DNA of 63,737 nt, filler included, from Folioceros fuciformis (Eukaryota), in the NCBI GenBank assembly GCA_049999805.1. It is 9 parts of 9 records of this genome, joined end to end, with 100 filler letters (N's around TTAATTAATTAA, not from the genome) between each part and the next. Parts side by side here need not be neighbours in the genome. Positions count along the whole stretch, not along the records: positions 15,069 to 23,727 come from JBNGIO010003360.1; 8 more parts are not named here. The stretch is one strand, 5' to 3'. This document shows positions 746 through 61,273 of this stretch, piece by piece (the first letter of the stretch is position 1; each line of letters starts with the position of its first letter). A model generated the notes under the pieces. That model did not search any database, had not been told where the DNA came from, and worked only from the letters and a program-made list of their open reading frames with translations. The translations under genes were made by a program, and so were the position numbers.

Positions 746-3700
746 TCAGCGTCGGGCAGTGAGATGCCGGCGAGATCGAGGCCCCGGTACAGCGCCAGGG
801 CCAGGACCCAGCCGGCAGTTGTGCACCTGGCGGGATCGGCCTCGGAGAAGGTGCTTTCTGGCCTCGAACAGGGCGCCAGAGTCGGGAATGCCGTTGCCGT
901 TGATGCCGTTGATGCCGGTAATGCCGTTGGCCGGGGGCAGAAGCTCCCCGAGATCCGAGTCCCGGGACACGGACATGGGCGGTCGCGGCAGGCTTGGATC
1001 GCGGATGCCCAGCCGCGCTAGCGTCCCGCCGTAGAAGTCCTTCCGGCGGTTGTGGGCGGATTTGAGCAGGTGCTGGGCCAGATCCTGATGNNNNNNNNNN
1101 NNNNNNNNNNNNNNNNNNNNNNNNNNNNNNNNNNNNNNNNNNNNNNNNNNNNNNNNNNNNNNNNNNNNNNNNNNNNNNNNNNNNNNNNNNCGTGGGGAGG
1201 AGAGACCGTGCCGGGCGCCGCCTGGGTGGGGGTGGAGGTGGCTCATGTCGCTGCTCCCGCTCAGGGAGCTAGACCAGCGATACGCCTCGTCCCGGTCCCG
1301 GGCATGGCGGTAGAAATCCCGCTCCGATTCCCGCTCCGTCGTCGTCTCCTCCTCCTCGCTGTTGTCGTCCCCGTCCATGTGAGAAGGCACGCCCTGGGCT
1401 GACACCCTCTGATACACCAGAACATCGTCCGTCTCGTCCTCGGAGAGGTTGATGCTCAGGTTCATGTCGGAGCCGTTGAAGCATTCCATGGAGTTGAGAG
1501 ACACCGTGACCGATAGGGGGCTAGCTTCGGCAAACTCCTCGAACATGGAGACGTCGATGACCTCGCACCCCCTGTCCACGGACTGTCGGCGGTGCTTGTC
1601 CTGGGGTCTGGGAGAGGCCCCGGTGGCGGAATCCGTGCCAGCCAGGCTCTCGATCTCGAAGAGATCGGAGCTGGATTCCCCGTCGTCCTCCGAGTCGTTC
1701 GCTTTCCCTGACGCTGCAGCTGCCGGTCTCCTGTAACGCTGGAGACGCTGCTGCTGCTGTTGCTGACAGCGTTGCTCCTGAGCTGCAGCGGCAGCGGCCC
1801 TGCCCTTGGGGTCGATGAAGGAGACGGTGTACCTCCCGGAGTAGGACCTGCTGGCTCCGTTTCTCTCCTTCTCCGAGCTGTAGAAGGTGGGAAGGCCGTA
1901 AGTGATGGTGCCCTGGAACGTCTTCCTCTGATCCTGCCCGGCCTTGTCACCTCCCCCGAAGACATCGCTGCGGGAGGGGGTGACGGGGTCGAGAGGGGAA
2001 CCGAAGGCAGAACCATAGCCCACCGTGCCCAGCCATTCTGGGAGCCCGTCCCCCGTGCTGCTGGTGGTGCGATTTCTGGGAAGTTGAGGTTGAGGAATTG
2101 GAGCCTCCTGTTCCACTTTCTCCGATCCATGGACATTTGACGGATTGAAGCCCATTTCGTCCATGTCTGCAATCACGAATTTCTCAACCTCTTCCTCGAT
2201 GGTGGATGACGGGCTACCCACTTCGTTGTAGGCGGTGGCGCCTGCGAGGGCGGCGGCCTTCCGGGACTCCACCAGCGAGGCCGCAGCCTCCTCCTCTCGG
2301 AAGCGGAGATCGTCCGTCATGACCGAGGACGTCCCTCGTCGAAGCTCCCAATTGTCGGGGCTGTCTGTGCCGTCGTCTGGACGTTGCTGCTGCTTCTTCA
2401 GGTGGGCTAGACTTGTGATTTGGTTCACCTTGCGCTGCACTTCTGCTTTCCTTGTGCTCTTGCTGTGGATGGGTGAGGCACCCAGAAACTGTTCGATCTC
2501 CTCCTCCATTACCCCCAAGGCTCCCAGTGCCCTCAGTCCTGATGCTGATGACTCCACCCCCATGGCCGACATTCGTCCGGAGGACAGGCTCCTCCGCAGA
2601 GTGGTGGGTTCTGACTCCGAGGAATGACTCCTGGAGCTTCGGTGGTCTGGAGAGAGTCTGTCGCAAAGAGGTGCCGTCTCCGAGCCCAGGCTCATGCCGT
2701 AACCTTCCTCTTGAATGATTCTGTCGGGGAAGGCTGCTGTGGAGGAGACACTCCACCTCTTCATCTCTTCAGACCGTCGACGCCTGGGCAACTCGGGCGG
2801 AATCCTGTCACAGTAAGGAGCAGGGTGCTCAGTGACGAGGACGTCACATAAGTCCTGTACAGACACATGCTCCGGGCTCTCCCTCCCTCTGCTGAAGCCA
2901 ACATCACGGTCTTCTCCTGATACTCCATAACCTGACTTCCGTGTTCCACGAGCCTCAGACCTGGAATGCGAGTGAGAAGCATGACCATGCCCATGATGAG
3001 GAGCTCCACCGAACACCTGATTTCTGGTCTCAACCGAGCTCATGCCTCTGCAACCGGACCTGCCGAACTGCCCTGCACAGTCAAGCATGACAGTTGGCGC
3101 ATGCCTCAACCTGTGATGACTGCCATTCACATTATGTTGTTCAGGAGCAGCCACTGGTCTGCCAGAGACTGATGACGCATCAGAGTCGTAATCCTGGACC
3201 ATGCTGAAGGCCGCCAGTGACTCGTACTTGAAAGACTCGCCGGAGTGTCTGCGGTTCTTGGCAGGGACAGGAATTTCCCTGGAAGCCGAAGGACGGTATG
3301 ACTCGCCCTTGTAGGCAGGCGGAGCTGGTCCGGGCATCCCACCGGGGAAGGTAAGAGGCACCCTCCCAGGCCTGCCAGTGGCCGGATACCAGGGTTCCTT
3401 GGAACTCGAGGGGACCGCTGCGTCACTAGCACTGGACTTCTTCAGGCATGACTTCAGATCCGAGTCTCTCACCATAACATTTGCATGTGACTCCAAGCTG
3501 TAACGACGCTTTCGGCCTACATCGTCCCCGAAAGTAAGATACCGTGGTCTGGCTTCCTCAAACGACCTGGATCTCGGCTCCCTAACAACATACCCCCAAG
3601 AAACCTTCATTGGGGGCTTGCCTGGACCACCTGGCCCTGCTTTCCTGGACTCATCCTTGAGAGTTGACAACCTGTGTGGCTCCGACTCCGAACCATTACC

Positions 3701-6421
3701 ATATCTCACTCCGGGGGAGGACAAGCTGATGGGCTGAGGATAACTGCTGGGCATCTTAGAGGAGCTGGCCTTCCAGGATTCGATAAATGCTGCCCTGTTG
3801 AATTTTCCGTCTTCTCGTTCTCTCTCAGCCTCTTCCCATATGGATTGGATTTCCTCCTTGCGCTTGTTGAAAGCCCTCTCTGTAGCCCAAACCTTCTCCT
3901 GCAGGCTTACAGGAATGCTGTCAGGCATCACAACCTTCTCCTTACCTTTTACTGCAGCCCCGTCACCCTGCTGTTTCTGTTTGCCGGGGAACAGCGAGTC
4001 CGCCACTACAGCTGCGTGCCCTTGCTGTTTGCATCTACCAGGGAACAGCAAGTCCTCAAACTCCTTGCCCTTGCCTTTCCACTTTCTGTCAGCCACCACC
4101 TCGGTCTCAGACTCTATTTCGGACCCTGCCACCTCCTTGGTTGAGGTCCTCGAGAATTCGGCTGACTTCCTCTGCAAGTTTCGGGTGATCTTCTCCCCAG
4201 CACCTGCCATGGCACCGCCAGAACCAGCACCAACATTTGCAACCTTACTTCTCAAAGCGGCATGCCGCAGCCGCAGCTGATCAGCAAACTCTTCTTTCGT
4301 CAGAGAATCCAGCAGGAAACCATGGGTATGCAGCTGTGCTTTGATGAACCGCTCTTCCATTCGGTCCATGATCTTAGACCTACGCTGCTCCTGTTCATCG
4401 CCTGCCTCAATCTCATGCACGGAGCCACCTGGTCCAGCAGACACCTTAGTGGCTGCTCCGGAGTCAGAAGCCCATGCCGAATCCTGGGCCCTGCCCGTAA
4501 ACATAACAGACTGCTGCTGAGAGACATCCTTTACCAAAGGATCTGCTCCATCCGTCGTCTTCTCAGCAGCCTGGTCAGCCGATCCTGGCACAAGGTCAGA
4601 CTCGAGGGACAGGAAGGGAACCTGCCACTGGCCCACCTCAGGGGTGCTACCACCTGCTTGCGCCTGCGTCTCGAACAACCTCGGAAAGGTGAGGGATGCA
4701 TCATTCTCCTCTCTGAAACCAAAAGCATCTCGAGCAGCAGCCATGGCTGCAGCCTCCGCATATGTCTTGGCAACATTTTCGAACTGCTGGCTGAACTCCT
4801 GCAAAGTGAGATCGTCCAGGCTACCACTCAAGGTTGTAGTAGCGGCCATCCCAGACCCCGTCAGAAAGGATGAGAAGGACACATCTCCGTACAGAACCTG
4901 ATTCAGAAGCTGCTGCCTGTTAGTGGCGCTACCGCCACTGCCACTGCTACCCCCGGAATCCGCTGGCGCTGCTGCAGAAGAGGCGGGCACATCAGGGACA
5001 CACATCCCGAAGCTGATGTTCCTCATATGGTGACCCTGATCGGTGGATAAAGCAGCTGGAGCATCATCAACTTCCAGGGAGGTATCAGCCTCAGGGGCGG
5101 ACTCCTCGACAGGAGACGATGAGAACTCCTCCTGAAGCCCTTCTGCCTGCCCATTCTCCAAGATCTGCCCCTCGGTGCTGCTCATGGAATCTTGGCCCTC
5201 CCTGCCGTCCAGCTCAAAGTCTTCTCCTCCACCAAGGGAGTGGTTGCCATCAGGAGTGGCGAGTTCCATGTCCACCTCCTCCTGGATCCCACTTCTGGCA
5301 GTAGGAGATGCAAAGGTAGAGCTCAGATTCTCATCGCCGGAAACAGTTGCAGCGGCAGCAGGAGTGGGAGAAGGGGAAGGGGCAATTTCAGGATGAGGAA
5401 GGGGAACAGCAGCAGGCTCTTCCAACACGACACTGGGAAGGGGAGTCACCAACTCGGCAGGCTGGTGCTGCTGCTTTTGCTGCATCCTGGGTTGCTGGAG
5501 GCGGGAGCGAGAGGAAGGATGTGGAGGCTTCCTCCTCATCTCAAACACCCCCGCCGTGAGCTCCAGAAACTCAACACTGGAATCCATCTCCCCCCCGGAC
5601 TGGTCCAGTCCGAATTCGCTGAACTCCTCCAACTCCTCCCGCGACTCAGTATCCGTACTGGCCCGGCCGCACTGCCCGCATGTGGTCCGCTTGAACCTGG
5701 TGCTGCAGCGGTCGCAGCTGGCGAGCATAGCGGCCCCACACACCCCGCAATTGATCTTCCCCGCCTCGATCTGCAGCGAGCTGGCTAGCCTGGTGGAACC
5801 ACACGCCCCGCAGCTGAGCGGCCTCCCAAACCTGCACTCCCCGCACCGGGGAATCCTGTTGTCACACATGGGGCAGACGGAGAGCTTGTGCGAGCCACAG
5901 TCCCGGCACTTGGCGAGCTTCCTGGACCCGCAGTCGGTGCAGCAGATGCAGTGCTTCTTACTGTGGCTGTCGCTGAATGTGAGAATGTTGGTGGCCGCCA
6001 GCCGCTGCGACGAGCTGAGCTCCGCAGAGTAGACGGTCCTCCCACTCCCAGCCCCCACCGACTGCTGCGAGCCCTTCCCAGCCCTCCCCTGCTCCTGCTC
6101 GTGATCCTGATCCGGACCCTCCACCGTGCTCGGCCCCTGCAACTGCATCCCCCGGGTCTGCCTCGACCGATTGAGCAGCGCGTTCAACGTCCCCGTATCA
6201 CCCACATCCGCAGAAAAGCGGGGCGAACCTCCCGCCAGCCTGAAATCCCCTGACGCCAGCGACACCCGCGGCGAGTCCAGCGCAATACTGGACATCCTTG
6301 GCGACTCCAGCAGAAACTGAACCCCGGTGGACGTGCCCCCAGACCTGAAGCTCGAAAGCCGCAGAATCCCGCTGTAGTAGTACTGCGGGCTCACCATGTC
6401 CGGGGTGACGTAGGCGCCGTC
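746..6421 (-). CDS. Large, mostly disordered protein with an N-terminal CxxC zinc-ribbon array and a C-terminal PKS/BIG GRAIN-type SSSDLFEIE motif; probably 5'-truncated
   Basis: Open frame of ~1890 codons. It stays open upstream of the ATG at 6397 to the scaffold edge (DGAYVTPD). Eight CxxC pairs lie at ~5667-5953 and DDGESSSDLFEIESL at ~1644-1688. The frame across the N gap at 1091-1190 is not verified. Confidence 0.75.
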   Translation of the reverse strand, partial: DGAYVTPDMVSPQYYYSGILRLSSFRSGGTSTGVQFLLESPRMSSIALDSPRVSLASGDFRLAGGSPRFSADVGDTGTLNALLNRSRQTRGMQLQGPSTVEGPDQDHEQEQGRAGKGSQQSVGAGSGRTVYSAELSSSQRLAATNILTFSDSHSKKHCICCTDCGSRKLAKCRDCGSHKLSVCPMCDNRIPRCGECRFGRPLSCGACGSTRLASSLQIEAGKINCGVCGAAMLASCDRCSTRFKRTTCGQCGRASTDTESREELEEFSEFGLDQSGGEMDSSVEFLELTAGVFEMRRKPPHPSSRSRLQQPRMQQKQQHQPAELVTPLPSVVLEEPAAVPLPHPEIAPSPSPTPAAAATVSGDENLSSTFASPTARSGIQEEVDMELATPDGNHSLGGGEDFELDGREGQDSMSSTEGQILENGQAEGLQEEFSSSPVEESAPEADTSLEVDDAPAALSTDQGHHMRNISFGMCVPDVPASSAAAPADSGGSSGSGGSATNRQQLLNQVLYGDVSFSSFLTGSGMAATTTLSGSLDDLTLQEFSQQFENVAKTYAEAAAMAAARDAFGFREENDASLTFPRLFETQAQAGGSTPEVGQWQVPFLSLESDLVPGSADQAAEKTTDGADPLVKDVSQQQSVMFTGRAQDSAWASDSGAATKVSAGPGGSVHEIEAGDEQEQRRSKIMDRMEERFIKAQLHTHGFLLDSLTKEEFADQLRLRHAALRSKVANVGAGSGGAMAGAGEKITRNLQRKSAEFSRTSTKEVAGSEIESETEVVADRKWKGKGKEFEDLLFPGRCKQQGHAAVVADSLFPGKQKQQGDGAAVKGKEKVVMPDSIPVSLQEKVWATERAFNKRKEEIQSIWEEAEREREDGKFNRAAFIESWKASSSKMPSSYPQPISLSSPGVRYGNGSESEPHRLSTLKDESRKAGPGGPGKPPMKVSWGYVVREPRSRSFEEARPRYLTFGDDVGRKRRYSLESHANVMVRDSDLKSCLKKSSASDAAVPSSSKEPWYPATGRPGRVPLTFPGGMPGPAPPAYKGESYRPSASREIPVPAKNRRHSGESFKYESLAAFSMVQDYDSDASSVSGRPVAAPEQHNVNGSHHRLRHAPTVMLDCAGQFGRSGCRGMSSVETRNQVFGGAPHHGHGHASHSHSRSEARGTRKSGYGVSGEDRDVGFSRGRESPEHVSVQDLCDVLVTEHPAPYCDRIPPELPRRRRSEEMKRWSVSSTAAFPDRIIQEEGYGMSLGSETAPLCDRLSPDHRSSRSHSSESEPTTLRRSLSSGRMSAMGVESSASGLRALGALGVMEEEIEQFLGASPIHSKSTRKAEVQRKVNQITSLAHLKKQQQRPDDGTDSPDNWELRRGTSSVMTDDLRFREEEAAASLVESRKAAALAGATAYNEVGSPSSTIEEEVEKFVIADMDEMGFNPSNVHGSEKVEQEAPIPQPQLPRNRTTSSTGDGLPEWLGTVGYGSAFGSPLDPVTPSRSDVFGGGDKAGQDQRKTFQGTITYGLPTFYSSEKERNGASRSYSGRYTVSFIDPKGRAAAAAAQEQRCQQQQQQRLQRYRRPAAAASGKANDSEDDGESSSDLFEIESLAGTDSATGASPRPQDKHRRQSVDRGCEVIDVSMFEEFAEASPLSVTVSLNSMECFNGSDMNLSINLSEDETDDVLVYQRVSAQGVPSHMDGDDNSEEEETTTERESERDFYRHARDRDEAYRWSSSLSGSSDMSHLHPHPGGARHGLSSPXXXXXXXXXXXXXXXXXXXXXXXXXXXXXXXXXXHQDLAQHLLKSAHNRRKDFYGGTLARLGIRDPSLPRPPMSVSRDSDLGELLPPANGITGINGINGNGIPDSGALFEARKHLLRGRSRQVHNCRLGPGPGAVPGPRSRRHLTARR

Positions 6422-6521
6422 NNNNNNNNNNNNNNNNNNNNNNNNNNNNNNNNNNNNNNNNNNNNTTAATTAATTAANNNNNNNNNNNNNNNNNNNNNNN
6501 NNNNNNNNNNNNNNNNNNNNN
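6422..6521. other. Artificial scaffold spacer (N44-TTAATTAATTAA-N44); identical spacers at 13099-13198, 14969-15068, 23728-23827, 33926-34025, 38533-38632, 58539-58638 and 62185-62284
   Basis: An identical 100-bp block with a palindromic all-frame stop linker occurs eight times. Confidence 0.97.
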
Positions 6522-15068: not shown

Positions 15069-15560
15069 GCTACATAATCTACTTTAAGCATTGTGTACTT
15101 GTAGCTTGTAAGTATCTCACTCAAAACTACAATGCCATGACATTTGGATCATTTAAAATGCTTTCATATGGATGTCATAAATTTTATGATAAGAGTTCAC
15201 CATTTCATCAACATGAAACAACTAAACATCAAGACATGGAGGTAAAATAAGAACTAGCATAAAAGACAAGAAGGTGAATGTAGCTCTTCAATCCTTATAA
15301 GTAAAGGGTAGATGAAGTTCTTACTTAATCCTATCTAATGAGATGCATTAATACTATGGTAGAGCCAATAAGCATAAGCTGGCATGCATATGTTTTTCCT
15401 TGTCTAGAATTTTAAGAGACTAACAATGTAAGCTTCTATGTATTGATTTGAGGTAGTAGTGGTTCTCCAACATTTGGCTCTTAAGTCATTATATCTCTTG
15501 TTAGGATCTACAATTTATTTGTAGTAATGAACATGATTGTGTTTCATCCATATACTTTCA
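15069..15560 (+). mobile_element. Possible highly decayed Ty3/gypsy RT-RNaseH remnant
   Basis: Weak resemblance to the YxVMPFGL motif (TAC AAT GCC ATG ACA TTT GGA at ~15128) in AT-rich, stop-ridden DNA. Confidence 0.25.
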
Positions 15561-18172
15561 ACTCAGGGAAGATTCTAAATGTTACTGACTATACTACCAT
15601 GGAAGGTATTATCTTGCCCCATGTAAGTGATATGTTAGCTATCGATGATTCTTTCATGTTATGCTAATACTAAACTTAAGAAAGATTCTTTGAATAATGT
15701 TGATTATACATTCACCCAAGGTATGGTGTTGTCCTTCTAATGTTTCCCTCACCCTAATACCACCTTCAACTCAAGGCACATTCTGAATATCAAATTGATA
15801 GTACATCCCTTAAGGTACTATGTAGTCTTGGTTGTCTTCTACAATGTGTTTGTAGACATCAAAATCTTGTCTCCTCCATATCATTCCAACTAAAGGAAGG
15901 TTCCCAATGCTATATACATTGATTGTACATCCTTGGGTTGTGTATTCTTATCATTTCTTTTTGACCCATGTCCCTTCAACTCTATAGTCTCTTATGCTAC
16001 TAACAAATTGGACAATTTCATCCATAAGGATACTCACATTTGGAGTCACTACACCAAAGTCATTGCATAGTTGTAGTTTATTCAAAGATGGTTTAACACG
16101 TATTAATCATATGTTGAATTTGACATACTTGTATGAACTATACTCACTATACAATGCAACAATAAGGATATGATATCATAGTATACATCATGATATCAAC
16201 CTTTCTCTAATTGTGCATCAAGCATATTAAGACACTCAAACCAAACCAAATGGCACCACAAAAGGACCCAAGTTCATAGTCCACCTCTAGAAACACATGA
16301 TCTCCATTATTTTATGCCCATGAGAACAAATCTTTTCACTTTCTTAACGATTGTTTTGCATGTGAATCATAGTTTCATGAATGTTGTGAAGAAATATTCA
16401 TAATGCAAGGTTGCATACAAAAGATCATAATGTAGGATTTGTATTTGTAAGAAGCATTCATGCTTAAGCTAACCCTAAGTATAATGATTTATATTAAGAT
16501 TTCAATCCATGAAATCCCAGCATGTAAGGTACAATGCATGATATTCATATTAGGTGTCCATGACTCCTTTTGAGATAAGAATTAGATCTTAGTAACCTAC
16601 AAAGTTAATGATATCATGAATCTACTAGATTTGAATAGGGCGATCATTTGAGTCTTCTCGCATTGAAATTGCATTCATTAGTCATAATATGGTGTATTGT
16701 TTACTACAATTTCCCTTTGGCAATAGGAATAGATATCTTCTTGAGCTATATATTAATTTGTATCTTTAATTTGTTAAAGATCACTATACACTCCCTGAAA
16801 ATAGAATATCAAAAATTTGCAAGAGACGCAAGATTAGGGAAAGCTCAGGGGATAAGTTAAAAGCTGGTGACGATAGTGCTATGATAAGTAATGAAAGAAG
16901 GGTTTTGAAAACGAATCTTCCCTTCATGGTAAGACTTATAACATGTATTGTCGTGGTGGTACGTAATATTAAAAAAAAAAAAAGGATTTTACTATGGTTT
17001 TTCAAGGATATCACAACAAACAAAGAACCAAACTTGACATAACGTACTAGTATTGGTTGGTCAAGGATCAATAACATCCATCTAAACAGTAAGATTTGTA
17101 GTGTAATATCGCTAATGCTAAAATCTAGATGTAGATCATGTAACATAGAGAAGTAACAACAAGGAACCTAAGAAACTTGAGGAATTAAAACATAAACAAT
17201 GAACATGAAGTGGTAAGCACAGGTAAGAGGTAAGAGGAGACTACAATGAATGCTAGGTCCTTTTTGGTGGTGTGCCTAATGACATAGTGTGTCATTTCGA
17301 AAGATATATGTATCTTTTCACCCTTACCTTAATATTCTTACATGAGAGGTATTGTTATGTTAATACGAAAAAAAATAATTCAAGAAATTTAGAATGCATT
17401 TCTAGATTGATGGTTTTTGAAATTCTATAGAAAAATATTGAATAGCTTATCTTCTTACTCTTGAGAGATATATTCACTTTAATCATATTACAACCCTACC
17501 ATATGTGCTAATGTGAGATCTTATCACATATAGTCATATGTAATATAGTAAATTTTGAAGAGAACTCTTTCTTACCCGTGCACATTTAAAAGTAGAAAAA
17601 ATAATTATTGGACTTAACCTACTTCAAGATATGTTTGTGTGTGAAAAGGTCCATATTTGGATGACAAATATCATTTAAAAAAAAATGAATCAGCAAGGAC
17701 ACTCTTTTGCAATGCATGCTCACATGTCAAAGTNNNNNNNNNNNNNNNNNNNNNNNNNNNNNNNNNNNNNNNNNNNNNNNNNNNNNNNNNNNNNNNNNNN
17801 NNNNNNNNNNNNNNNNNNNNNNNNNNNNNNNNNTTTGGTTTCCCTCTAACCTTTAAATTAATGAGCTTGTGAAAGTTCAAATGTGGCAGCACCTTGAAAT
17901 CTAACTTTGGCAGATTTGAGCTTGCAAATGAAAGAGACCCAACATATTGTGCTGGTAATAGTACACAATTCATAATTTTGTACGCCTAAATTATAAGATT
18001 TATTCTTATTTATTAATTGGGTTACGTTAGCTACAATAAACTCAAAAGTAGGGCATGATACACAACAAATGTTTTCAATCTATGAGGTCCGTCAATTGGG
18101 TGCTACATGATCTAATCAAAACGACTCCAACTCAAGGTTCTCAATGTAAGATAGATGAAATGTGTTCCATGG

Positions 18173-21129
18173 TTAGTCCAACCAAAGATGTGACTTGCTA
18201 GCTCCTTTCCTCTTGGTAAACCTTAAATTTAACTCCTTATTGTATTCTTTCTTCATCTTGTCAAACTTGTTCGCCGACATGTTCAACATGGAGCTTATAA
18301 CAGTTGCACATGAAGCAACTGTGTAAAAGAGCTCACATTGTCCAAGAACCTTGTTGGTGATGATTTCTATGTCTTGGTAGCGCTCAAAACGTCTCATTGT
18401 GCTGGAAATGTCATGGCAAACTGCAGCTATGGTGGAAGCTGCAAAGTGTGTAACACCCAAAGATTTAGTAAGAGCCCAAGCAATCTTTGTCAATTGAACG
18501 TTCTCTTCTCTGAGTTGGTGTACTTACGTCCTACAGTAGCCTTCACAAAAAACATTCGCTCATCTAAGTATCTTGCTAGAGAACTTTCTCCTCCATTGAT
18601 TACATTTTGTGGAATTGTCTCCTCGAAACGTGATGGCCTGGGCAACTGGGCTGGGAAAGATTTTCCTTTCCTACCATTCTTTATGTGGTGTAACAACTCT
18701 TGAATGATCTTCTTAGCAACCTTGTTATCTAAAGCATATTGATCTTTGATTGCCTCAGCCCACTCTAGTCGAGCTCTCACCAGCCCAGCAGCATAAGCAA
18801 AGTAGAGCAACATCTGCTCCACTAGCTTCAAGTAAATTCTTTTATCTAGCAATATGTTTACTAATGTGTGGGCTGAAAACATGAAGTATTGCATCAGCTG
18901 CAATACGTGCTTCACTTTAGGGCTGTCATTCTCCGTGATAGCTAAGCAGGCTATAAGGTTTTCATGTATAAAAGCATCTATATTTTCAAGTACTTCTTCC
19001 ATTGCGTCGTGATTATAATGAACCATATGGTTTCTTGTATTGCATATCTGCCTGACAAAAAATATATCGGCACAATATGTAACATTAGTATAATTTGGCA
19101 CAGTTGAGATTCATGTAACTCACACAACTCCTTTTCCTAAAACTATGCACTTTAAGATGTGAAGAAATGATTTGTAAGTGAACCATGCCATGCCTATTCC
19201 AAGCCATGACTTTAAACATGCTTTTTGTAAACACAAGTATACACACCAGCATAATGAATGAGATATCATGAATGATACATTGTCTGATTCCTTAAGGTTG
19301 GGCTTTTACACTGTCAGCTGCTGCACATAATTCTATAGCGTCTTGTAACACTTTGGGCAAAACCTCAAATTCTGATGGCCTGTGCTTGGCTGCCTTCTTC
19401 ATAACATCACTGAATTCAAGGTTTTGTTCCATCTTCCACCTCCATTTGGAGCTAGTTTGTCCTTCCTTGTAATTTCATTAAGGTGTTAGAGGTAAATCAA
19501 GGTCTATTACACTATTGATCAAAGAGGTGAAAATGCTTAACATCATGCATGGATGCATGGGTATTGATATGGAAAATATACACTCACTGCAAGTCCTATA
19601 AGCAACTAATGGGCACCCTAAACCATATGGAAAAATTTACATGTTGTTGAAGAAGATAATAATGTGCTTGTGAATCAATGATCAGTGCCTTTCTGCGTGT
19701 ACTCTATTTCTACAAGTTTGATTGTGTGACGGACTGGGTTTCATTGCACTCCATAAAGTTGAAATCTGATTGGAAAAACGTACATACCACTAGTGATTTT
19801 GAACTTGGATTATATGAGTACCAAATAATGTTGAGGAGCTCATTGATTAACATCAATCCAATATCTAGTGCAACTCTCCTTCTAGTGTATATTACAGGTC
19901 TTGCATTGGAATCAGCTGTCCATTAACAACAAGACAAGCCAATTGCAATCAAGGCAACAGGAATTGGAAAGCATGGAAGAAAGATTTCAGTTCGGTGGCA
20001 TGCCATTGGGCATAATAAGCGGGGCTTGAAGTTGAGGATTACCTTTGACGAGAGAACGGGGTCTCAGATCAAATCTGGTGAACATAAGGCGAGGCTTCAA
20101 GGATTCATTGTCGACCAGTAGGTCCTCGATGTGGATTTGATGAACAGGTTTGTTCTTAAGTTTTTTGTTGCGGTGCTGTTTCTGTCTGTGTCTGCGTTTG
20201 ATGGCAGGCTTGAGCCAACTAGCACTGGAGGAGTCGGTGTCTGATGACCCGCCACTGGCTGTGGTGCTTGTGCGACCGGCGGACGCCGCAGAGCAGCTGG
20301 CCCATGCCCCGTCCCAGTTACAGGCCAGTGCCAGAGAGTCCTTGGTGCTCCGGGGAGACTCTAGGCTGTTGTGCGGCGACCTGGAGCGCGACCTCGACGG
20401 AGATCGCGACCGGTAGCCGGACGGCGACAACGACCGCCGCCGTCCTCGCCGCTGTCTGTTGTGTCGCCGTTTCCGCCGCCGGACCAGTCGCCGGAGACGG
20501 CGATGTTGGGCAGCCTGGGTCTGGGCCCAGGCCAGATGCCGGCCCAGATTCCGGCGTCGGCGCTGGCAGTTTCGTTTCCTCTTGCGAGCCCTTGCTCTTC
20601 TGGCGGCAAGCTTCGTGCTCCTCCGGCCGCGCCGCCCCGATCCGTCCTTGCCTTGTTTGCTGGCCGCATCTTGTACACCCTTGCTCAAATCGGCGGTGTC
20701 CAGGGCCTGCTTGTTGCCCGATGAATTGGCTGAGCAGGAAGTGGCAGCGTGTACAGCAGCGGCTTGGGAGGACTGCGGGCTAGGACGCTGTGTAGGCGAG
20801 GAGGATCTGCGCTCCCTTCGAGAAGCTTCATTGTCCCCCTCGCCTCGAGCGTCTTCGTCGTCTGACTCCCCTAGCACTGGCTCTACCACGTCCTGTGGAA
20901 TTTCGCTGTATTCTGATCCAATGTGTTCTGAGGCGTACTGTAGTTTAGTAAGTCTGCGCCGCTTTCGACATCCCTGGATTTCCTGCTCTCCGTTTGTTTG
21001 AGGCCTTTCAGACCTCTCAGGTTCGCCGGATCTGCTAGAGCTGGCAAGCCCCTTGCCCCGGCTGCCTCGGTGACAGTTTCTTCTGCCGCAAATCCTGATT
21101 GAGCCAGATCTATCGTCTGCTGATTCCAT
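18173..21129 (-). CDS. Multi-exon gene of unknown function: Arg/Ser-rich N-terminus plus a helical C-terminal region with a HEPN-like RNHMVH motif
   Basis: GT-AG introns 20042-19916 (SLVK/ADSNARP) and 18527-18439 (ATVG/PSTIAA) each join flanking frames exactly. A further GTATGT donor lies at 19787. Middle exons (19100-19710) are not fully resolved. Confidence 0.6.
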
Positions 21130-22367
21130 GATGATGATGTTAAATCACCTCCATCCACCACCTCTGCTTTCAATCTAACCCTGACTTTGGAAACATTGCT
21201 CTTGTTTGCCGGTGTTGTGTCCCGGAATTGTTCAATCTGCTTTGCGAGGCACGCTGTCTGTGATTTCAAGATTTGCGCAGGGAATATTTTGCAGCATCTC
21301 ACGTCAGGAGGTTTGTTCTAGTAATTTATCCTGCAGATGGTGATGAGAGTACCTACTTAAGGCTTGCATGTAATTTGGACATAGGACAGGTATCAGGGTA
21401 TTCAACATGGATTTGAGGTCACACATCACACAGCGGGGGAATGCCAAGCCTGTTATGGTGCACAGGCCATTGGATGCAGCTTCCAATGTTTTCCTTATCA
21501 TTCTGCAAACGTGGTGTACAGACAGAGATGTGGATATTGCGAAGTTCAGTGTTTCCTGCTAGAAAATCCCAAGTACATCAATCAATTCTTGTCACTATAG
21601 AAGCAAGTATTCGTGAGTAATATGAGGTGCAAAGAAGTGATCAACTCAATGGCTGTAGAAATGACATGCCTGAACGCATCCATATGAGAGCTTTCAACTT
21701 CATACCTCTGGCTCGCCTGCATTCCCAGAACAGCAGATGCCAAGCGGCAGCAAATCCGTATATGCCGATTGGAATAGTGTAGGCCCTGTGGAGTTTGAGG
21801 TGAAAATATCGGAGTCCGTCAGATGTAAAAGTTTTCATAGACAACTAACTACTCACTTCCGGAGGCCACAGAATCATCATGTAACACCACAAACTTGTGC
21901 CCACAGGGGATTAGGATAGAGTGCCTGGCCGGGCCGGGCCGGTCCAGAGAAAATTTGAAACTAACAATACGTGCAGGTGTTGTTACATTACTTGCCCGTT
22001 GCATGTTTCTGGTTTGAAAGGTTGGCATGAGGACAGGCGGTACGAGGACCAAGAGGCGTCCTTTCACAGCTGCGAGGACTAGCGCGACCGGCGACAACCG
22101 GTCACCATATCGTGGCTCTGGCGAGGACCAGGTGGCAGGCGGTTCGGCAGTGGCGTCATGCAGCAGTCTGGCGGGATGGGAGCGCGACACACGGGGCTGA
22201 CAGTGCAGTTCAAGGTGATTGGCGTGCGGCCTGCAACTGTGATCTGGCTCAATGCTTCGTCTGTAGCAGTGTAGCACATTGCTTTTAGTTATTGCTTCTG
22301 CGAACCACTGTTCGTTCAGAGGTCCGTCTGGAAAGCTAATGCTTGTTTGTTGTCAAGGCCCGATATC

Positions 22368-23282
22368 ATGTCATTGAATGTTACCAACGATGACGCCAAG
22401 AAAGAAGAGAGGCACAAGTATCATGTGGAGCGGCGGGAAGACGGGCAGCCCTTACCGCTGCATCCCAACTTGGGAATCGAGCACGCCGTGACACAATTCT
22501 CCACCCACAAGCTTGCTGCTGGTGGCCACGGGATTCTGTTTGGCTCCAGAATTCCCTTGCACTTCTTCACAGTCCAGGGTTTCGGTGAGACTGATCAGGG
22601 AGACGGAAACGATCCCTGGGAAACGGGCTCCTACGACCTGGCACTTGAGGACGCCGGTAAGTTGTCATTTCGAATTCCTTGTGGTGGGCTTTTGATTGAT
22701 GGTTTGAATCTATCGTGAGGAATAATGTATGGAATTTCTTTGACGCCCCACAGGCATCCAGGATTTTAACGTGCAGAGCTACAGCTCGGTCATTCCGCCA
22801 GAGGCAACACCCGTGACATATGAACAAGCCAAACCGTTTTTCCGGCACGGAGCAGTCATGGAGGTGATCATGGCGGTAATGCATGGAGTGAAAGGCGATC
22901 GCATTACGGCAGGAGTTGGTCGCATGCAGGTGGTTACCCGGAGGCCACATGACACTGTCCACCAACGGATTCAATGAAAATGAAGGACTAATAATGCCTG
23001 GTTGTTATATTGATGCAGATCAGGAGAAAGTCGGACAGCCAACTCATAGGCGGATATGCAGCCGAGTACAAAGGGCACGCTAACAAGAAACGAGCACGCG
23101 ATATTTTGCAGTTGGACCTGAAGAGCATATTCGCCAGAAGGTTCGACGCAGAGCAATACGAGTACTTTGATGAGGACTACACTGTGCTCGAGCATGAAGT
23201 GGAAAAAGCATTTGGCACAATTCTGGCGTCCATTTGCTTTGTTACTTATGTGGAGCCGGTCTACACCAACGTCCAATTTTGA
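22368..23282 (+). CDS. Pyruvoyl-dependent arginine decarboxylase proenzyme (PvlArgDC, AaxB/PdaD family); exons 22368-22656, 22754-22929, 23019-23282 give 242 aa; possible extra in-frame 5' exon 22158-22214 spliced to 22320
   Basis: Spliced protein contains FGSRIP..FFTVQGFGETDQG...DPWETGSYDLALEDAGIQDFNVQSYS/SVIPPEA, FRHGAVMEVIMA, IGGYAAEY and KAFGTILASICFVTY, collinear with recalled chlamydial AaxB motifs. Both introns are GT-AG and frame-preserving. Confidence 0.88.
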
Positions 23283-24150
23283 TGTGGAGGAGGAATTTGT
23301 CACTACCACAATTTGACGTTTATTTCCCTTTTGTCCTAATTGGAGCCCTTCTACTCCAACTTGGGGTCACTTTTGATGTTTCAGGCCTCCTGGCTTGTGG
23401 ATATACAACTTGTCCATACTTGGACAAATAGTTCAATGCACCAAGTTAACTTTGGGAATATAAGCGTTGGCTATTTATGCACATCTATATATAATATTGC
23501 GTTTTCATGGCTTGGAATTCATCTCTTATTTTGGATCATATATAAATTTATAAAATAAAAAAAATACATAAAAATGTCAGAAAATAGTGTCCCTACATCA
23601 TGTTTTTATCTTTAATATATGATTTATGAAAAATCTACTTTTTTTAAAAAGTAGAATTTTTTAGATATAATTATTTTTAATAATTATAGATTTTCAAGTT
23701 TTGTCAATATTGCACACACCATTAATANNNNNNNNNNNNNNNNNNNNNNNNNNNNNNNNNNNNNNNNNNNNTTAATTAATTAANNNNNNNNNNNNNNNNN
23801 NNNNNNNNNNNNNNNNNNNNNNNNNNNCACCCGCCCTAATCTGTAACGTTGCCTGCCTGCCCTAGCTCTAGACTAGCCCAGGCAGGCAGCAAAGCACTTC
23901 TCAAGAGAGATGAGGGTCGTACGGTGTAGCAGCGTGACGTTGACACTGGTCACCGGAAGGGCCGCCGGTGACCTCTGTGTCCGCTTTGGTTGCGGGACGA
24001 GCCGGGCCGGGACGGGCCGGGCCGTGGGGTTCGAACCCGCGTGCCTCGGGATGCCCTGCACTGCCTCGCCCTACCTCCTGCTCCCTGCCGCTGCTCGTGG
24101 CCTTGTCCGGACCCGGACGCGTTTCGCCTGCGGCTTTCGCCACCGCCGCA

Positions 24151-30115: not shown

Positions 30116-33100
30116 CTCCCACTCAACACATCTACGGTCTATCCAAGACTTACTCGATTAACCCTAGCATTTTGCTAAACTTCATATACTTCTCTGAAGC
30201 TAAGCCTTTTGTAAGAACTTCAGCGGGCATGTCCTCAGTAGAACAATAAACTAAAGGTATTTCCTTGGACTGGACTTTCTCCCTAATGAAGTGATGCCTA
30301 ACTTCGATGTGCTTAGTCCTTGCGTGGAAAATAGTGATCTTAGCCAAATAAATACAGCCCTGATTGTCGATGAAGATGGGCGTTGCACCTTGTTGCTTGA
30401 ACCATATTTCTTCGAGCAATCGCCTGAGCCATATAGATTCCACAGTTGCGGCTAAGGCTGCCATATACTCAGCCTCTGTAGAGGATAGTGCCACTGTAGG
30501 CTGGCACCGACTACTCCATGAAATGGCTCCCCCAAATAGCATGAAGGCATACCCTGTCGTAGACCTGCAAGTGTCAACATTTCCAGCCCAATTTGCGTCG
30601 CAAAATCCCATAATACGGGCTTCTTCGTCCTCCTCCTTCCGATAGTTCAATGTTCAATGTTTTGTGCCTTGCAAATATCTGAGTATTCTCTTGATGGCTT
30701 GATCATGTTGAGGTTGGGGGTTGACTAAGAATTAGCTCACAACTCCCACTGCCATTGCAATGTCTGGCGTGGTGCTTGTCGCCTAGTAAGTAAGGCAGCC
30801 AACAACACATTGGTAGAGATTCTTATCTACCTATTTCTTCACATTAGATTCCACCTCCTATGATAACTTCTCATTGCGGATCATTGGCGTTTGCGTTGGT
30901 TTGCAATCCTGCATCCCAAAACGCTCTAATATAGTCTGCATATATGTCTGCTGACTTAGAGAGATTGCCTTGTTGGTCCTATCTTTGTCGACCTTTATTC
31001 CTAGGAAATAATTAAGCTCCCCAAGGTCTTGTACAACGAAGCTTTCACTAAGGCCTCGCTTTGCTAAGGTCAGAAGCTCCTGATCATTGCTAACGATGAT
31101 TAAATCATCCACATATACGGCAATGATGGCAACAAAAGCTCCCACTCGATTCACGTAAATATTCCAATCAGCATTGGTCTTCTTGAAACCTCTAGACTGT
31201 AAATGATCAAGTTTACAATACCAAGTAAGGGCAGATTGCTTAAGATTGTAAATGGCCTTTTTTAGCTTACATACCTCGCTCTCACATCTGGGTACCATGT
31301 AGCCTTCGGGTTGCTCCATGTAGATCTCTTAGTTCAAATCTCCATTTAGAAAAGCAGTTTGGACATCCATATGATGTATCTCCATATCCAAAGTAGCGGA
31401 GAGAGGAAGGAGTGTTCGGATAGAGGCTATCTTCGCAATAGGAGAGAAGGTATCTGTGTAGTCCACACATGGAATCTGCGTATACCTTTCCCCACTAGCC
31501 TTGTCTTATAGCGCTCTATGCTGCCGTCAGCCTTTCGCTTGATCTTGAAAGTCCACTTTGATCGTTCTGGGAGGTAGAGGAGTAATAATCCACGTTTTGT
31601 TGGCAATGAGAGAGTTATACTCATTGTTCACAACTTCTCTCCATTCTTTTGCCTTTGGGCTTTCGAATGCCTCCGTCAAGCTGCGGGGTTCTCTGACATC
31701 TGCAAAATACACCTCCTCACTGACACATCCATTAAGAGATTCTATGAGCTTCTCTGACGGCTTTCGCAACCTGGTAGATCTGTGTAACGTCGGTTGCGGT
31801 TCTGTAACTCGATAGTCTTCTTCTACTTCTTCAGTAACATCAAGAGTTTCTCTCGCTCCCCCCTTGATGTCGCATTTTGCACCTGCAGCTGGGGGTAAGA
31901 CTCCAACTACGTCTTCAACCACTGTGACATGAGGAGTGTCTCTCCCTCCCCCCCTATGTCACAAGGTTGAGAAGAGTCGACAGGCATCGGAGCGGAAATC
32001 ACACCGTAGTCTTCGGTAGACCTGGAGGGATCCAACAAGGGAGGAGATGAAGCTCCCACTCCATTTGTAGCCTTGGCAACCTCTTGAAAAACAACATCCT
32101 TACTAAAAGTGACCTTCTTCGTAGTAAGATTGTGTAACCGATAACCTTTCACTGCATTGGAATAGCCAAGCATGAGACACTTCGTACCATTAGGATCCCA
32201 TTTGGTTCGGCTCGCCTTCGAAACTCGAGCTTAGACCACGGAACCAAAAGCCCTAAAATGTCGGACATCGGGTTTGATACCAGACCATGCTTTCTTTAGC
32301 GTCATACCGGCTACGGCCTTCGTCGGAACTCTATTCAACACGGAGGTTGCTGTCACAACAACCTCTTCCCAAAAATTGACCTGCAAGCCACTTTGAAACA
32401 ACATGCACTTGGCTACTTCCACAAGGCTCCGTATCGTCCGCTTTGCAGCTCCATTTTGTTGCGGAGTGTGCGGAATCGTGAGTTGCTGTTGAATGTTGTT
32501 CTCCTTACAAAAAACTGGGAACTGAGAATAAACATATTCCCCTCTATTATCACTTCTAAGCATCTTAAGGCGTTCACCATGTTCGATCTCGACTGAAGTC
32601 TTTCAGTCCTTGAAAGTCTGGAGCACCTGAGATTTCTCCTTCAAAAGGTAAGTCCACGTCTTCCACGTAAAATCGTCGACAAAGATGAGCATGTAGCGTT
32701 TCCCACCCTGAGTAGGATTCCTCATGGGCCCGTTGATGTCAATGTGGACTAATTCCAATGCTTCTTGTGTGCAATGTGCCACGATTTTAGGGAACCTCAT
32801 GCGATATAGCTTCCCCATCTAACATCCTGGACATAACCGTGTCACATTGATCTCCTTCAAATCCAAGCCGGTCACCATGTTGCGAGTCTTCATCAACTTG
32901 AGTTTGTCTGCTCCGATGCGGCCCAAACGCTGATGCCATAAGTCGACAGACCCAATGTTGTCGTGTGAACTAGTTAGGAACGTGCAAGCTTGCTGTTCCA
33001 GGGAAGCACAAAGTTTGTGCACATTGCCCACACGAACACCCCAAGCGGCCATGTGTGACAGCTCAGGCTGTACAGGTTGGATGCGTCGGCTTGTAGAGTT

Positions 33101-50884: not shown

Positions 50885-55910
<5,026 letters not shown>

Positions 55911-57085
55911 CGCGCTCCCTCTCCTCTGCAAGCAAGCAGCTAGGTGAAGGCGAAATCCATCACTTTCCTAACTCTCACGCCGCGTACACTTCCTGCGGTA
56001 TGCACAAGCACACTTTCCTCCACTGCTTGCAGACTCATCGCTTCACGACCATGCATCCCGAGGCAGGCAAGTCGACGTCTTGTGAAATTTTGCAGCACAC
56101 TGTGCTTGACTCTTGCTGGAGACCCGCATTCTGTGCCCGATTCCACTCACGAATATGCATCAAATTCGACCAGTCAATCGAATCCACACCCCGGCCGCTC
56201 CCGCTCCCGTTCAGGCTTCCAGCAGCCAATCGTGCTTCAAACTCCGCAGTTCACAATTCCAGGAAGCGAGGCAGGCTCCTCGCTGCCAGGCGCAGTGCCC
56301 GAAAACCATCAAAATTTGCTGCACCATGGGCTGACCTCACGCTGCACGCAGCGGTGCGTCGCGATGCAGCAGGCTGCAGGCTCCCCCCTCGACGTTCGCG
56401 TGCGACGCGTGTGCCCCGCGCAGCAACGCAAGAGGGGATGTCGGGGATAGGAATCTGTGACCAAATGCGTGGGCTGATTGGAGCTGCAGGCGATGACGCA
56501 ATAACTACAGCACAGCTCTCAGGCACAAAAGATGCAGTCCGGGCGGACCGGGCGCGGGCGGGCCATGAGATGGCGGACCGTGGCAGTCGCCCGCTCGGGC
56601 CTGGACCAGGTATGAGCTATGGGACCCAGATCCTCGCTTTTGGCCATCTCGATGCCTGGGATGCTTGCAAAACACGCCCCAGGTGATGATTGGGGCTGGC
56701 CCAGCTCCCTTGGCGTGCTCCCAGTCGACCGACACACGTGCCTTCCTTCTGCTGGCTGCCAAGTAAAAATCCCACCAAATCCGCCAACACCGTCGGGCTT
56801 TCACTACCACGTGCGGCGCGAGGAGCCAGGTTGCGTACTTTGACGGCGCACCTGGTCCACAACAAGATTCCATGCAGTGTGACGTATGCAAATTACATCA
56901 AGTGTTTCAGTACTGTGTGTAAATACATGGCATGGCATCTGGGGCCTGTGGCCTCCAGGCTACCGGGTTACCTGGTAGGCTGGGTACACCGGGTACCCGT
57001 ACAGCGCCAATCAGCCCACGCTTTCGGCCACAAATAAATGTAGGGGAGACTAAAGTGATCGGGACGAAGGCACCTAGAGAGAGAG

Positions 57086-58638: not shown

Positions 58639-58820
58639 TATATATGTACGCATGGACTTCAAGGCTATATATGTACGCATGGACTTCAAGGCTATATATG
58701 TACGCATGGACTTCAAGGCTATATATGTACGCATGGACTTCAAGGCTATATATGTACGCATGGACTTCAAGGCTATATATGTACGCATGGACTTCAAGGC
58801 TATATATGTACGCATGGACT
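58639..58820. repeat. 27-bp perfect minisatellite (TATATGTACGCATGGACTTCAAGGCTA)n, about 6.7 copies, running off the scaffold edge
   Basis: Directly visible head-to-tail identical units. Confidence 0.95.
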
Positions 58821-59207
58821 ATCAATCTAGATGTACTGAGCTGAGGCTTTATCTTGGGGCTTCTGAGGCTTATCTTGGGGCTTCTCTTGGGATTCACCGT
58901 GTTTCTAACAGTGTTGTCATGCTAGCTGAGCATGAGTTGGTCGACAAGGAAGGCACTCCGCAACAGCATTGGACAAACGTTCCCATGGGAGACCCCAGAC
59001 TTGCTTCAGGGCATGAGAATTCCAAGCATTGGGTGTTAAAGGAAGAATTGCTTCTCGGCAGCCCGTTTCGGGCTGTCCTTGAAGCGATGCGGCCCTTGAA
59101 CCGAGTACGGATCCTGCAGTTGTGCGGCGCCGCCTGAGGCCTGAGGAGTACATACCTCGGTGCTCCTGCCCTAACCCGTGCTGTGTTTGCTACGGTGGGA
59201 CTCTGTC

Positions 59208-59418
59208 TTGCTAGTGGCGCCGCTCTGAAGTGGGATCTCGTCGATTTGTGTAGGGGGGCTTTTCATATCTGGGGCATCCTGTTTCGTGACGAGGAGAAGC
59301 AACAGTTTTCGGAGAGATGTTGCTAGGGGCGCTGCTCTGAAGTGGGATCTCGTGGATTTTTGTAGGGGTGTTTTTCAGAACTGAGGCATCCCATTTCGTG
59401 ATGAGGAGAAGCAACAGT
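59208..59418. repeat. Diverged ~112-bp tandem duplication upstream of the LRR gene
   Basis: Two copies of TTGCTAG.GGCGC.GCTCTGAAGTGGGATCTCGT...GAGGAGAAGCAACAGT. Confidence 0.8.
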
Positions 59419-59438
59419 CCTCTCTGCGCTCCTGGCTA

Positions 59439-61125: not shown

Positions 61126-61273
61126 ATTGAGTGAAGTGCTTGACAACCTAGAAAAGCTTCCATTGAGTAAAGTGCTTGACAACCTAGAAAAGCTTCCATT
61201 GAGTGAAGTGCTTGACNNNNNNNNNNTGAGTGAAGTGCTTGACAACCTAGAAAAGCTTCCATTGAGTGAAGTG
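61126..61273. repeat. 36-bp tandem repeat (ATTGAGTGAAGTGCTTGACAACCTAGAAAAGCTTCC)n interrupted by a 10-N gap
   Basis: About 4 visible copies. Confidence 0.9.

Follow-up and report, generated by a model that had tools for sequence, protein, structure and literature searches.

A spliced nuclear gene of Folioceros fuciformis for a probable pyruvoyl-dependent arginine decarboxylase of an old green-lineage subfamily

The window analysed here, a stretch of 63,737 nt from Folioceros fuciformis made of nine records joined end to end, carries within the part at positions 15,069–23,727 (JBNGIO010003360.1) a four-exon nuclear gene of a non-seed land plant. Its 242-aa product is a proenzyme of the pyruvoyl-dependent arginine decarboxylase family (PvlArgDC), which probably converts arginine to agmatine and belongs to an old subfamily of the green lineage. 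The components of this reading differ in strength: that the locus is a real, expressed gene of the PvlArgDC family is close to certain, an active pyruvoyl decarboxylase is strongly suggested by the residues that are conserved, and arginine as the main substrate is the favoured choice by a lesser degree. We infer the self-cleavage, the substrate and the physiological role of the protein.

Three stop-to-stop frame pieces on the plus strand (22275–22718, 22744–22977 and 22995–23282), read from the sequence and its stop-to-stop frames, are joined by splicing into a coding sequence of 729 nt that opens at the ATG at 22368 and comprises 242 codons and a terminal TGA (Table 1). Five public sequencing runs were listed, none of them recorded as RNA, and the contigs of four (X1–X4) were compared with positions 21800–23700. 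A 1249-nt contig of X1 (record 2) is identical to the window and joins the four exons end to end; the three parts absent from it (143, 97 and 89 nt) are all bounded by GT..AG, and the exon model adds up to the same 1249 nt. In X2 and X3, which represent two other related organisms from separate studies and whose contigs fall in likeness bands from 85% to under 95% of the window, the 97-nt and 89-nt introns are likewise absent, while X4 had no contig matching the compared interval. Because the introns are missing from them, the contigs can be taken to come from spliced RNA. An initial annotation of this DNA, made from the sequence alone, had joined three open reading frame (ORF) fragments through two introns into a protein of 242 aa; the length is that of the spliced model and the introns are exactly those removed in X1, X2 and X3, to which is added an intron in the leader that had been missed.

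Table 1. Features of the Folioceros fuciformis window, with the decarboxylase gene first (positions along the whole window)
Feature	Position	Strand	Details
Exon 0, non-coding 5' leader	22012..22214	+	First piece of the 1249-nt X1 contig, zero mismatches
Upstream ORF, 57 codons	22027..22200	+	In the coding frame across intron 0; closed by TGA 22198-22200
Intron 0, 143 nt	22215..22357	+	GT..AG, in the 5' untranslated region; X1 contig joint 22209>22353, cut +5
Exon 1	22358..22656	+	Start codon 22368-22370; residues 1-96 and first base of codon 97
Intron 1, 97 nt	22657..22753	+	GT..AG, phase 1, G/GTAAGT...CACAG/GC; spliced out in X1, X2 and X3 contigs
Exon 2, domain core	22754..22929	+	Asn102 (22768-22770), Ser107-Ser108 (22783-22788)
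Intron 2, 89 nt	22930..23018	+	GT..AG, phase 0, CAG/GTGGTT...TGCAG/AT; spliced out in X1, X2 and X3 contigs
Exon 3	23019..23589	+	Residues 156-242, Glu171 (23064-23066), stop 23280-23282, ~307 nt of 3' untranslated region
R2R3 MYB, intron-less ORF of 448 aa	8110-9456	-	Two Myb DNA-binding repeats
Ty1-copia RVT_2 fragment	30858-31328
LRRNT_2/LRR (leucine-rich repeat) protein	59385-61055

The start of the coding sequence was placed at 22368 because the two candidates upstream fail. The ATG at 22158, from which the initial annotation had run its feature to 23282, lies in the 5' untranslated exon and after splicing begins an ORF of just 30 codons that is out of frame with the coding sequence, so that of the proposed span the end, at the stop codon, stands and the start does not. 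An in-frame N-terminal extension from exon 0, opening at ATG 22027, is closed by the TGA at 22198–22200, which is present in the RNA contig as well. Three antisense ORFs (21849–22352, 22567–23004 and 22971–23366) were also considered and matched no Pfam family at E ≤ 0.01. The 5' end of the transcript may lie further upstream than 22012. X1 has a further contig (1548 nt, differing in depth) that spans 21800–22039, continues upstream and shares 28 nt with the gene contig; this could represent transcription of the neighbouring minus-strand ORF at 19987–21144, forming a head-to-head pair, or else a longer isoform of the leader.

Membership of the family is carried by all of the coding exons. PF01862 (PvlArgDC) was the sole Pfam family matched by each of the three exon translations, and the matches are in collinear order (exon 1, profile 1–28, 13.7 bits, E 0.06; exon 2, profile 30–86, 47.3 bits, E 2.8e-12; exon 3, profile 92–161, 17.6 bits, E 0.0038), with exon 2 alone clearing the gathering score of 22.7 bits; the family had been named correctly from motifs at the outset. 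When the window was scanned in six frames with a profile of plant-type homologues, only the three exon pieces matched (E 1.6e-33 to 1.6e-40) and the other nine pieces listed had E ≥ 1.8, which identifies a single copy in the window, far beyond chance. Against the homologue profile, the spliced protein reached 387.7 bits.

A profile of 13 homologues aligned to the PvlArgDC chains 1n2m (S53A, E 9.3e-8) and 2qqd (N47A, E 2.5e-7) of Methanocaldococcus jannaschii, with plant columns corresponding to Asp35, Asn47, Ser52/Ser53 and Glu109. The equivalents in the window protein are Asp90 (22635–22637, in exon 1), Asn102, Ser107/Ser108 and Glu171, which bears out both the self-cleavage site and the catalytic Glu that had been proposed, including the position of the two Ser codons. 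In an alignment of 50 homologues, no variation is seen at the Asn, cleavage-Ser and Glu positions, and conservation at the Asp position is at least 90%. Asp35 we take to be the sole side chain that binds the guanidinium group, and Asn47 presumably has a role in processing or catalysis, both as reportedly described by Tolbert et al. in 2003. For the remaining positions, passages of PMC2720952 state that Glu109 of the M. jannaschii enzyme aids self-cleavage and that AaxB of Chlamydia cleaves itself at Ser53. At the residue before the cleavage serine, X2 and X3 read Thr (codon 22783–22785; 22784 G>C, with or without 22785 C>G), in agreement with the Thr/Ser variation of the same column in the family consensus, and no change was listed for the cleavage Ser codon itself in either.

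The fold was modelled on a Selaginella orthologue (P0008), 64.2% identical to the window protein over 226 aligned columns. Its AlphaFold model had a mean predicted local distance difference test (pLDDT) of 89.7 and a predicted template modelling score (pTM) of 0.83, with lower confidence over the first ~40 residues (means of 10-residue blocks, 53–76). All 12 matches of this model to the PDB at E ≤ 0.001 were M. jannaschii PvlArgDC chains, and against the nine full proenzyme chains (ranks 1–9, 169 columns) the target-normalised TM-score was 0.81–0.86; the next meaningful match was a pyruvoyl histidine decarboxylase (1pya_B, probability 0.98). The four-layer alpha-beta-beta-alpha fold of PdaD, the archaeal enzyme, is thus present in the predicted structure of the orthologue. 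A search of the ESM Atlas returned bacterial PvlArgDC clusters only.

Exon 1 holds, ahead of the start of the PvlArgDC domain, a plant-specific N-terminal stretch. An extension of ~55–90 aa had been proposed at first; its length before the Pfam domain is now set at 61 aa. Residues ~17–60 align with a stretch that is conserved in land-plant homologues and absent from the Sorangium proteins, and the first 16 residues include four that are acidic. Homologues from liverworts, Sphagnum and ferns possess an additional, poorly conserved presequence rich in Ser, Ala and Thr, which is missing from both the window protein and the Selaginella protein. The 61-residue stretch is atypical as a transit peptide; the window protein is predicted to be cytosolic, and some of its relatives may be targeted to organelles.

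If it behaves like PdaD of M. jannaschii, the proenzyme would cut itself by serinolysis between Ser107 and Ser108 into a beta chain (residues 1–107) and an alpha chain (108–242), and Ser108 would become the N-terminal pyruvoyl cofactor. Help in cleavage and catalysis would come from Asn102 and Glu171, the guanidinium group of the substrate would be bound by Asp90, and decarboxylation would proceed through a Schiff base, the likeliest reaction being L-arginine to agmatine and CO2. Such an enzyme would offer a route independent of pyridoxal phosphate (PLP) alongside the usual PLP-dependent arginine decarboxylase (ADC) of the plant.

Homologues are widespread among green plants. With exon 2 as the query, 17 proteins at E ≤ 0.001 were recovered among 23 candidates, all with PF01862, and the named matches include Sphagnum compactum, Calypogeia fissa, Riccia fluitans, Marchantia polymorpha (as ‘arginine decarboxylase’), Selaginella moellendorffii and Sorangium. 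In a profile search, 175 of 8000 scored candidates matched, and the zygnematophyte Spirogloea muscicola was added; among the best 120 of the 175, which were listed, there was no seed-plant or chlamydial name, and no Physcomitrium name occurred among the homologue matches listed. Cluster look-ups further named Adiantum nelumboides, Pteridium aquilinum, Coccomyxa subellipsoidea and Chlorella sp. A99, so that the range comprises liverworts, Sphagnum, Selaginella, ferns, a zygnematophyte and trebouxiophyte green algae. The Chlorella sp. A99 protein (P0199) is a 579-aa model in which a partial PvlArgDC is joined to a serine carboxypeptidase S10 domain, probably two adjacent genes merged by the annotator. 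An exhaustive profile search returned 725 representatives at E ≤ 0.001. Prokaryote genomes, one per species, were scanned for two plant-type motifs, and 31 loci were found, distributed among Methanothrix or Methanotrichaceae-type archaea (n = 16), Sorangium (n = 6), Desulfarculaceae (n = 2), Omnitrophota (n = 2) and other metagenome-assembled genomes (n = 5), with none in Chlamydiota. The nearest named prokaryotes among the matches listed were likewise Sorangium, Desulfarculaceae, Omnitrophota and Methanothrix.

Trees place the window protein firmly among land plants. A FastTree phylogeny of 238 rows (243 domain-covering profile matches out of 304, minus five duplicate loci; the partial match L032, intended as a canonical outgroup, was excluded) put it within a 13-row land-plant clade (support 100), inside a 20-row clade (support 99) with Spirogloea and the Coccomyxa cluster. 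An IQ-TREE phylogeny of 77 chosen rows grouped 12 land-plant rows, including the window protein, with support 100/100, and all 19 rows taken as eukaryotic formed one clade with moderate support (81/80); these 19 are eight named rows, the window protein and ten judged eukaryotic by tree position only. The eukaryote clade nests among prokaryote sequences with weak sister branches (P0137, 76/7; a Sorangium-containing clade, 53/90), and two cluster look-ups covering 20 proteins named no organism for either the outgroup representatives or the prokaryote-like groups that adjoin the plant clade. The four full-length canonical rows sit on a branch of length 4.2 and the outgroup does not form one side of any branch, leaving the tree effectively unrooted at depth. 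A sister pairing of the window protein with Adiantum (98/88 in the 77 rows) was lost once Pteridium was added in a 30-row tree. There the two ferns pair (97/92), the liverwort and Sphagnum rows form one clade (96/87), and the placement of the window protein relative to Selaginella, the ferns and the liverwort/Sphagnum clade lacks support. Three database gene models (P0002, P0009 and P0013) part from the family sequence precisely where the two exon junctions lie, which fits intron positions common to these genes and the window gene. Because the homologues span green algae to ferns and group in one clade, the sequences point to an ancient entry into the green lineage followed by mostly vertical inheritance, with loss in some lines.

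Arginine as the substrate is supported by the conserved catalytic set together with Asp90, the PdaD-like fold of the orthologue model and the database family name carried by relatives. Several observations weigh on the other side. Six plant-type proteins scored 42–60 bits against TIGR00286 (cut-off 106.95) and 39–56 bits against NF009064 (cut-off 207), with neither threshold reached by any of the six (exon 2 of the window reached 18.9 and 18.7 bits, respectively), and the window protein is 24–25% identical to canonical bacterial PvlArgDC. The fold evidence comes from the orthologue P0008 and not from the window protein. In all five prokaryote genomes checked, the plant-type gene co-occurs with another ADC: SpeA, above its cut-off, in three Methanothrix-type genomes and Sorangium, and in Dethiosulfatarculus, without SpeA, a canonical PvlArgDC whose immediate neighbour is an arginase-family gene (G003 contig C4 94490–96165, L032), with the plant-type paralogue elsewhere. 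None of ten neighbouring ORFs at three prokaryote loci (L015, L001 and L029) was a polyamine gene, and the literature as searched held no enzymology for any member of the plant-type subfamily. Fusions of PvlArgDC with agmatinase occurred in four of ten long representatives and belong to the canonical group rather than the plant-type group. These four (P0189, P0220, P0243 and P0254) are metagenome proteins of 443–469 aa in which an N-terminal PvlArgDC is followed by an arginase/agmatinase domain, and such a chain is, by its predicted domains, a two-step arginine-to-putrescine enzyme.

Since another ADC is present in each of the five genomes, a function other than ordinary agmatine supply is possible. 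The chief alternative is accordingly an active pyruvoyl enzyme with a changed job, acting on another basic or guanidino amino acid or serving a special purpose, for example stress tolerance through proton consumption, which is less likely than arginine decarboxylation though a serious contender. The scores short of both equivalog cut-offs, the low identity to canonical enzymes, the accompanying SpeA or canonical PvlArgDC and the lack of polyamine genes among the ten neighbours are all what it would lead one to expect. Against it, the equivalent of Asp35, with its presumed guanidinium role, is kept in the window protein and in at least 90% of the 50 homologues, the remaining catalytic residues are invariant, and two ADCs in one organism are common, as with SpeA and AdiA of E. 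coli. Pyruvoyl decarboxylases are also able to switch substrate, SpeD homologues having become ornithine or arginine decarboxylases according to the abstract of PMC10407285. A wider form of the same idea, in which the plant-type subfamily is a functionally distinct pyruvoyl decarboxylase always found beside an ordinary ADC, with a different substrate or a stress or regulatory role, gated by upstream ORFs in this plant and lost in seed plants, is tentative to a similar degree.

The leader bears on this last point and on whether the gene is sound. The spliced leader is 213 nt long (window 22012–22367) and contains three upstream ATGs. Besides the 57-codon ORF, which had no Pfam match, there are ORFs of 30 and 24 codons in a different frame that overlap the main ATG. 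Control through upstream ORFs is known in plant polyamine genes (SAMDC), and those of the spliced leader may gate translation in this plant. The 57-codon ORF is rich in Arg, Ser, Thr and Ala and might be a decayed presequence exon.

It is improbable that the gene, though expressed, is a relic decaying into a pseudogene, or that the locus is an assembly contaminant. The three upstream ATGs, the 57-codon ORF among them, could lower translation, and the lack of a seed-plant name among the listed matches implies that the gene is dispensable in some lineages. Yet the frame of 242 codons is intact with all catalytic residues kept, and X2 differs from the window by 10, 13 and 20 letters in coding pieces of 302, 171 and 308 letters, compared with 25 differences and 12 gap letters over 254 letters of leader. 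As for contamination, the locus is plant-type nuclear DNA and no bacterial contaminant, because of its spliceosomal introns, its transcription and the plant-type genes in the window. The argument made at the outset, that introns exclude a bacterial source, is strengthened by their having been spliced from the RNA-derived contigs.

Scarcely credible is the remaining alternative, a recent horizontal transfer in which a single plant lineage domesticated an AaxB-type gene of Chlamydia-like bacteria: most of the family is prokaryotic and the eukaryotes nest among prokaryote sequences, but homologues with the same exon junctions extend from green algae to ferns, support for the land plants as a clade is 100/100, no chlamydial locus was among the 31 with plant-type motifs and no chlamydial name among the 120 matches listed, and the spliced gene is present in contigs of two related organisms at ~90–95% likeness. 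The label ‘Chlamydia AaxB-like’ in the initial annotation is therefore not retained on these two chlamydial counts, AaxB itself not having been aligned, and neither is the suggestion of a recent or notable domestication, given homologues in green algae, liverworts, Sphagnum, a lycophyte and ferns that group together. Broad presence in green plants, which that annotation had set against a recent transfer and not against the enzyme assignment, is what was found, and the enzyme assignment stands.

Elsewhere, the window carries, besides the MYB, LRR and Ty1-copia features of Table 1, a response-regulator piece and an epimerase piece. Frame pieces on the minus strand at 50885–55967 resemble one multi-exon hybrid histidine kinase gene, with a receiver domain match at 50885–51337. 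An open frame of 1907 aa on the minus strand (746–6469), broken only by masked runs of N, is rich in Ser, Ala and Glu and has a Cys-rich block. At 58640–58830 on the plus strand, approximately seven tandem copies of a 9-residue unit in the translation imply a 27-nt minisatellite adjoining a masked stretch, and a related repeat is found in a minus-strand frame near 61150–61250.

Textbook plant polyamine synthesis begins with a PLP-dependent ADC or with ornithine decarboxylase. That non-seed plants and green algae have a pyruvoyl-type homologue, expressed and predicted to be catalytically intact, suggests either a new activity or a second route that is cofactor-independent, which seed plants appear to be without. 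Relatives are already labelled ‘arginine decarboxylase’ in sequence databases, and no published description of a plant or algal PvlArgDC was found by full-text searches of the literature, a scope outside which lie the supplementary gene lists of papers on horizontal transfer into land plants, where the family may be included. The interest lies mainly in whether the plant-type subfamily differs in function from an ordinary ADC.

Among known systems, AaxB of Chlamydia pneumoniae, part of the aaxABC arginine:agmatine exchange, is a self-cleaving pyruvoyl enzyme of the same family, with a cleavage site that is presumably Thr-Ser, as in X2 and X3. No specific kinship to it was seen, there being no chlamydial sequence among the nearest listed relatives. 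When the canonical Dethiosulfatarculus protein was the query, there was again no chlamydial name among 120 listed of 8000 matches. Linkage to the aaxA porin or the aaxC antiporter is not expected in a eukaryote, and neither was noticed among ORFs of at least 130 aa or the 10 window ORFs scanned, in which no dedicated search for them was made. The passages of PMC2720952 on AaxB make no mention of plants.

The canonical plant ADC (PLP-dependent, SpeA-type) presumably shares the reaction, arginine to agmatine, and is unrelated to PvlArgDC in fold and cofactor. The ‘prokaryotic ADC’ of duckweed is, in the relevant passages of PMC8545783, a PLP-dependent PF01276-type enzyme and so of a different family, and SpeD-derived ADCs are described from viruses in passages of PMC9992855.

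Closer is PdaD of M. jannaschii (MJ0316; PDB 1mt1, 1n2m, 2qqc and 2qqd), which belongs to the same Pfam family and has the same fold as the orthologue model (root-mean-square deviation ~2.4–2.6 Å), though with an identity to the P0008 model of only ~22–24% in the structural alignment. Compared with PdaD, the plant protein is ~20 residues longer in the domain, has the 61-aa N-terminal stretch in addition and comes from a spliced eukaryotic gene, and plant-type proteins fall far under the TIGR00286 cut-off. The closest known proteins are the plant and algal homologues in the databases (P0011 of Marchantia polymorpha, P0008 of Selaginella, LOC112341617, and those of Riccia, Sphagnum, Calypogeia, Adiantum, Pteridium, Spirogloea and Coccomyxa), which at 55–64% identity are orthologues of the window protein and share with it the domain, the conserved N-terminal stretch and apparently the intron positions, those of liverworts, Sphagnum and ferns differing by their extra N-terminal presequence.

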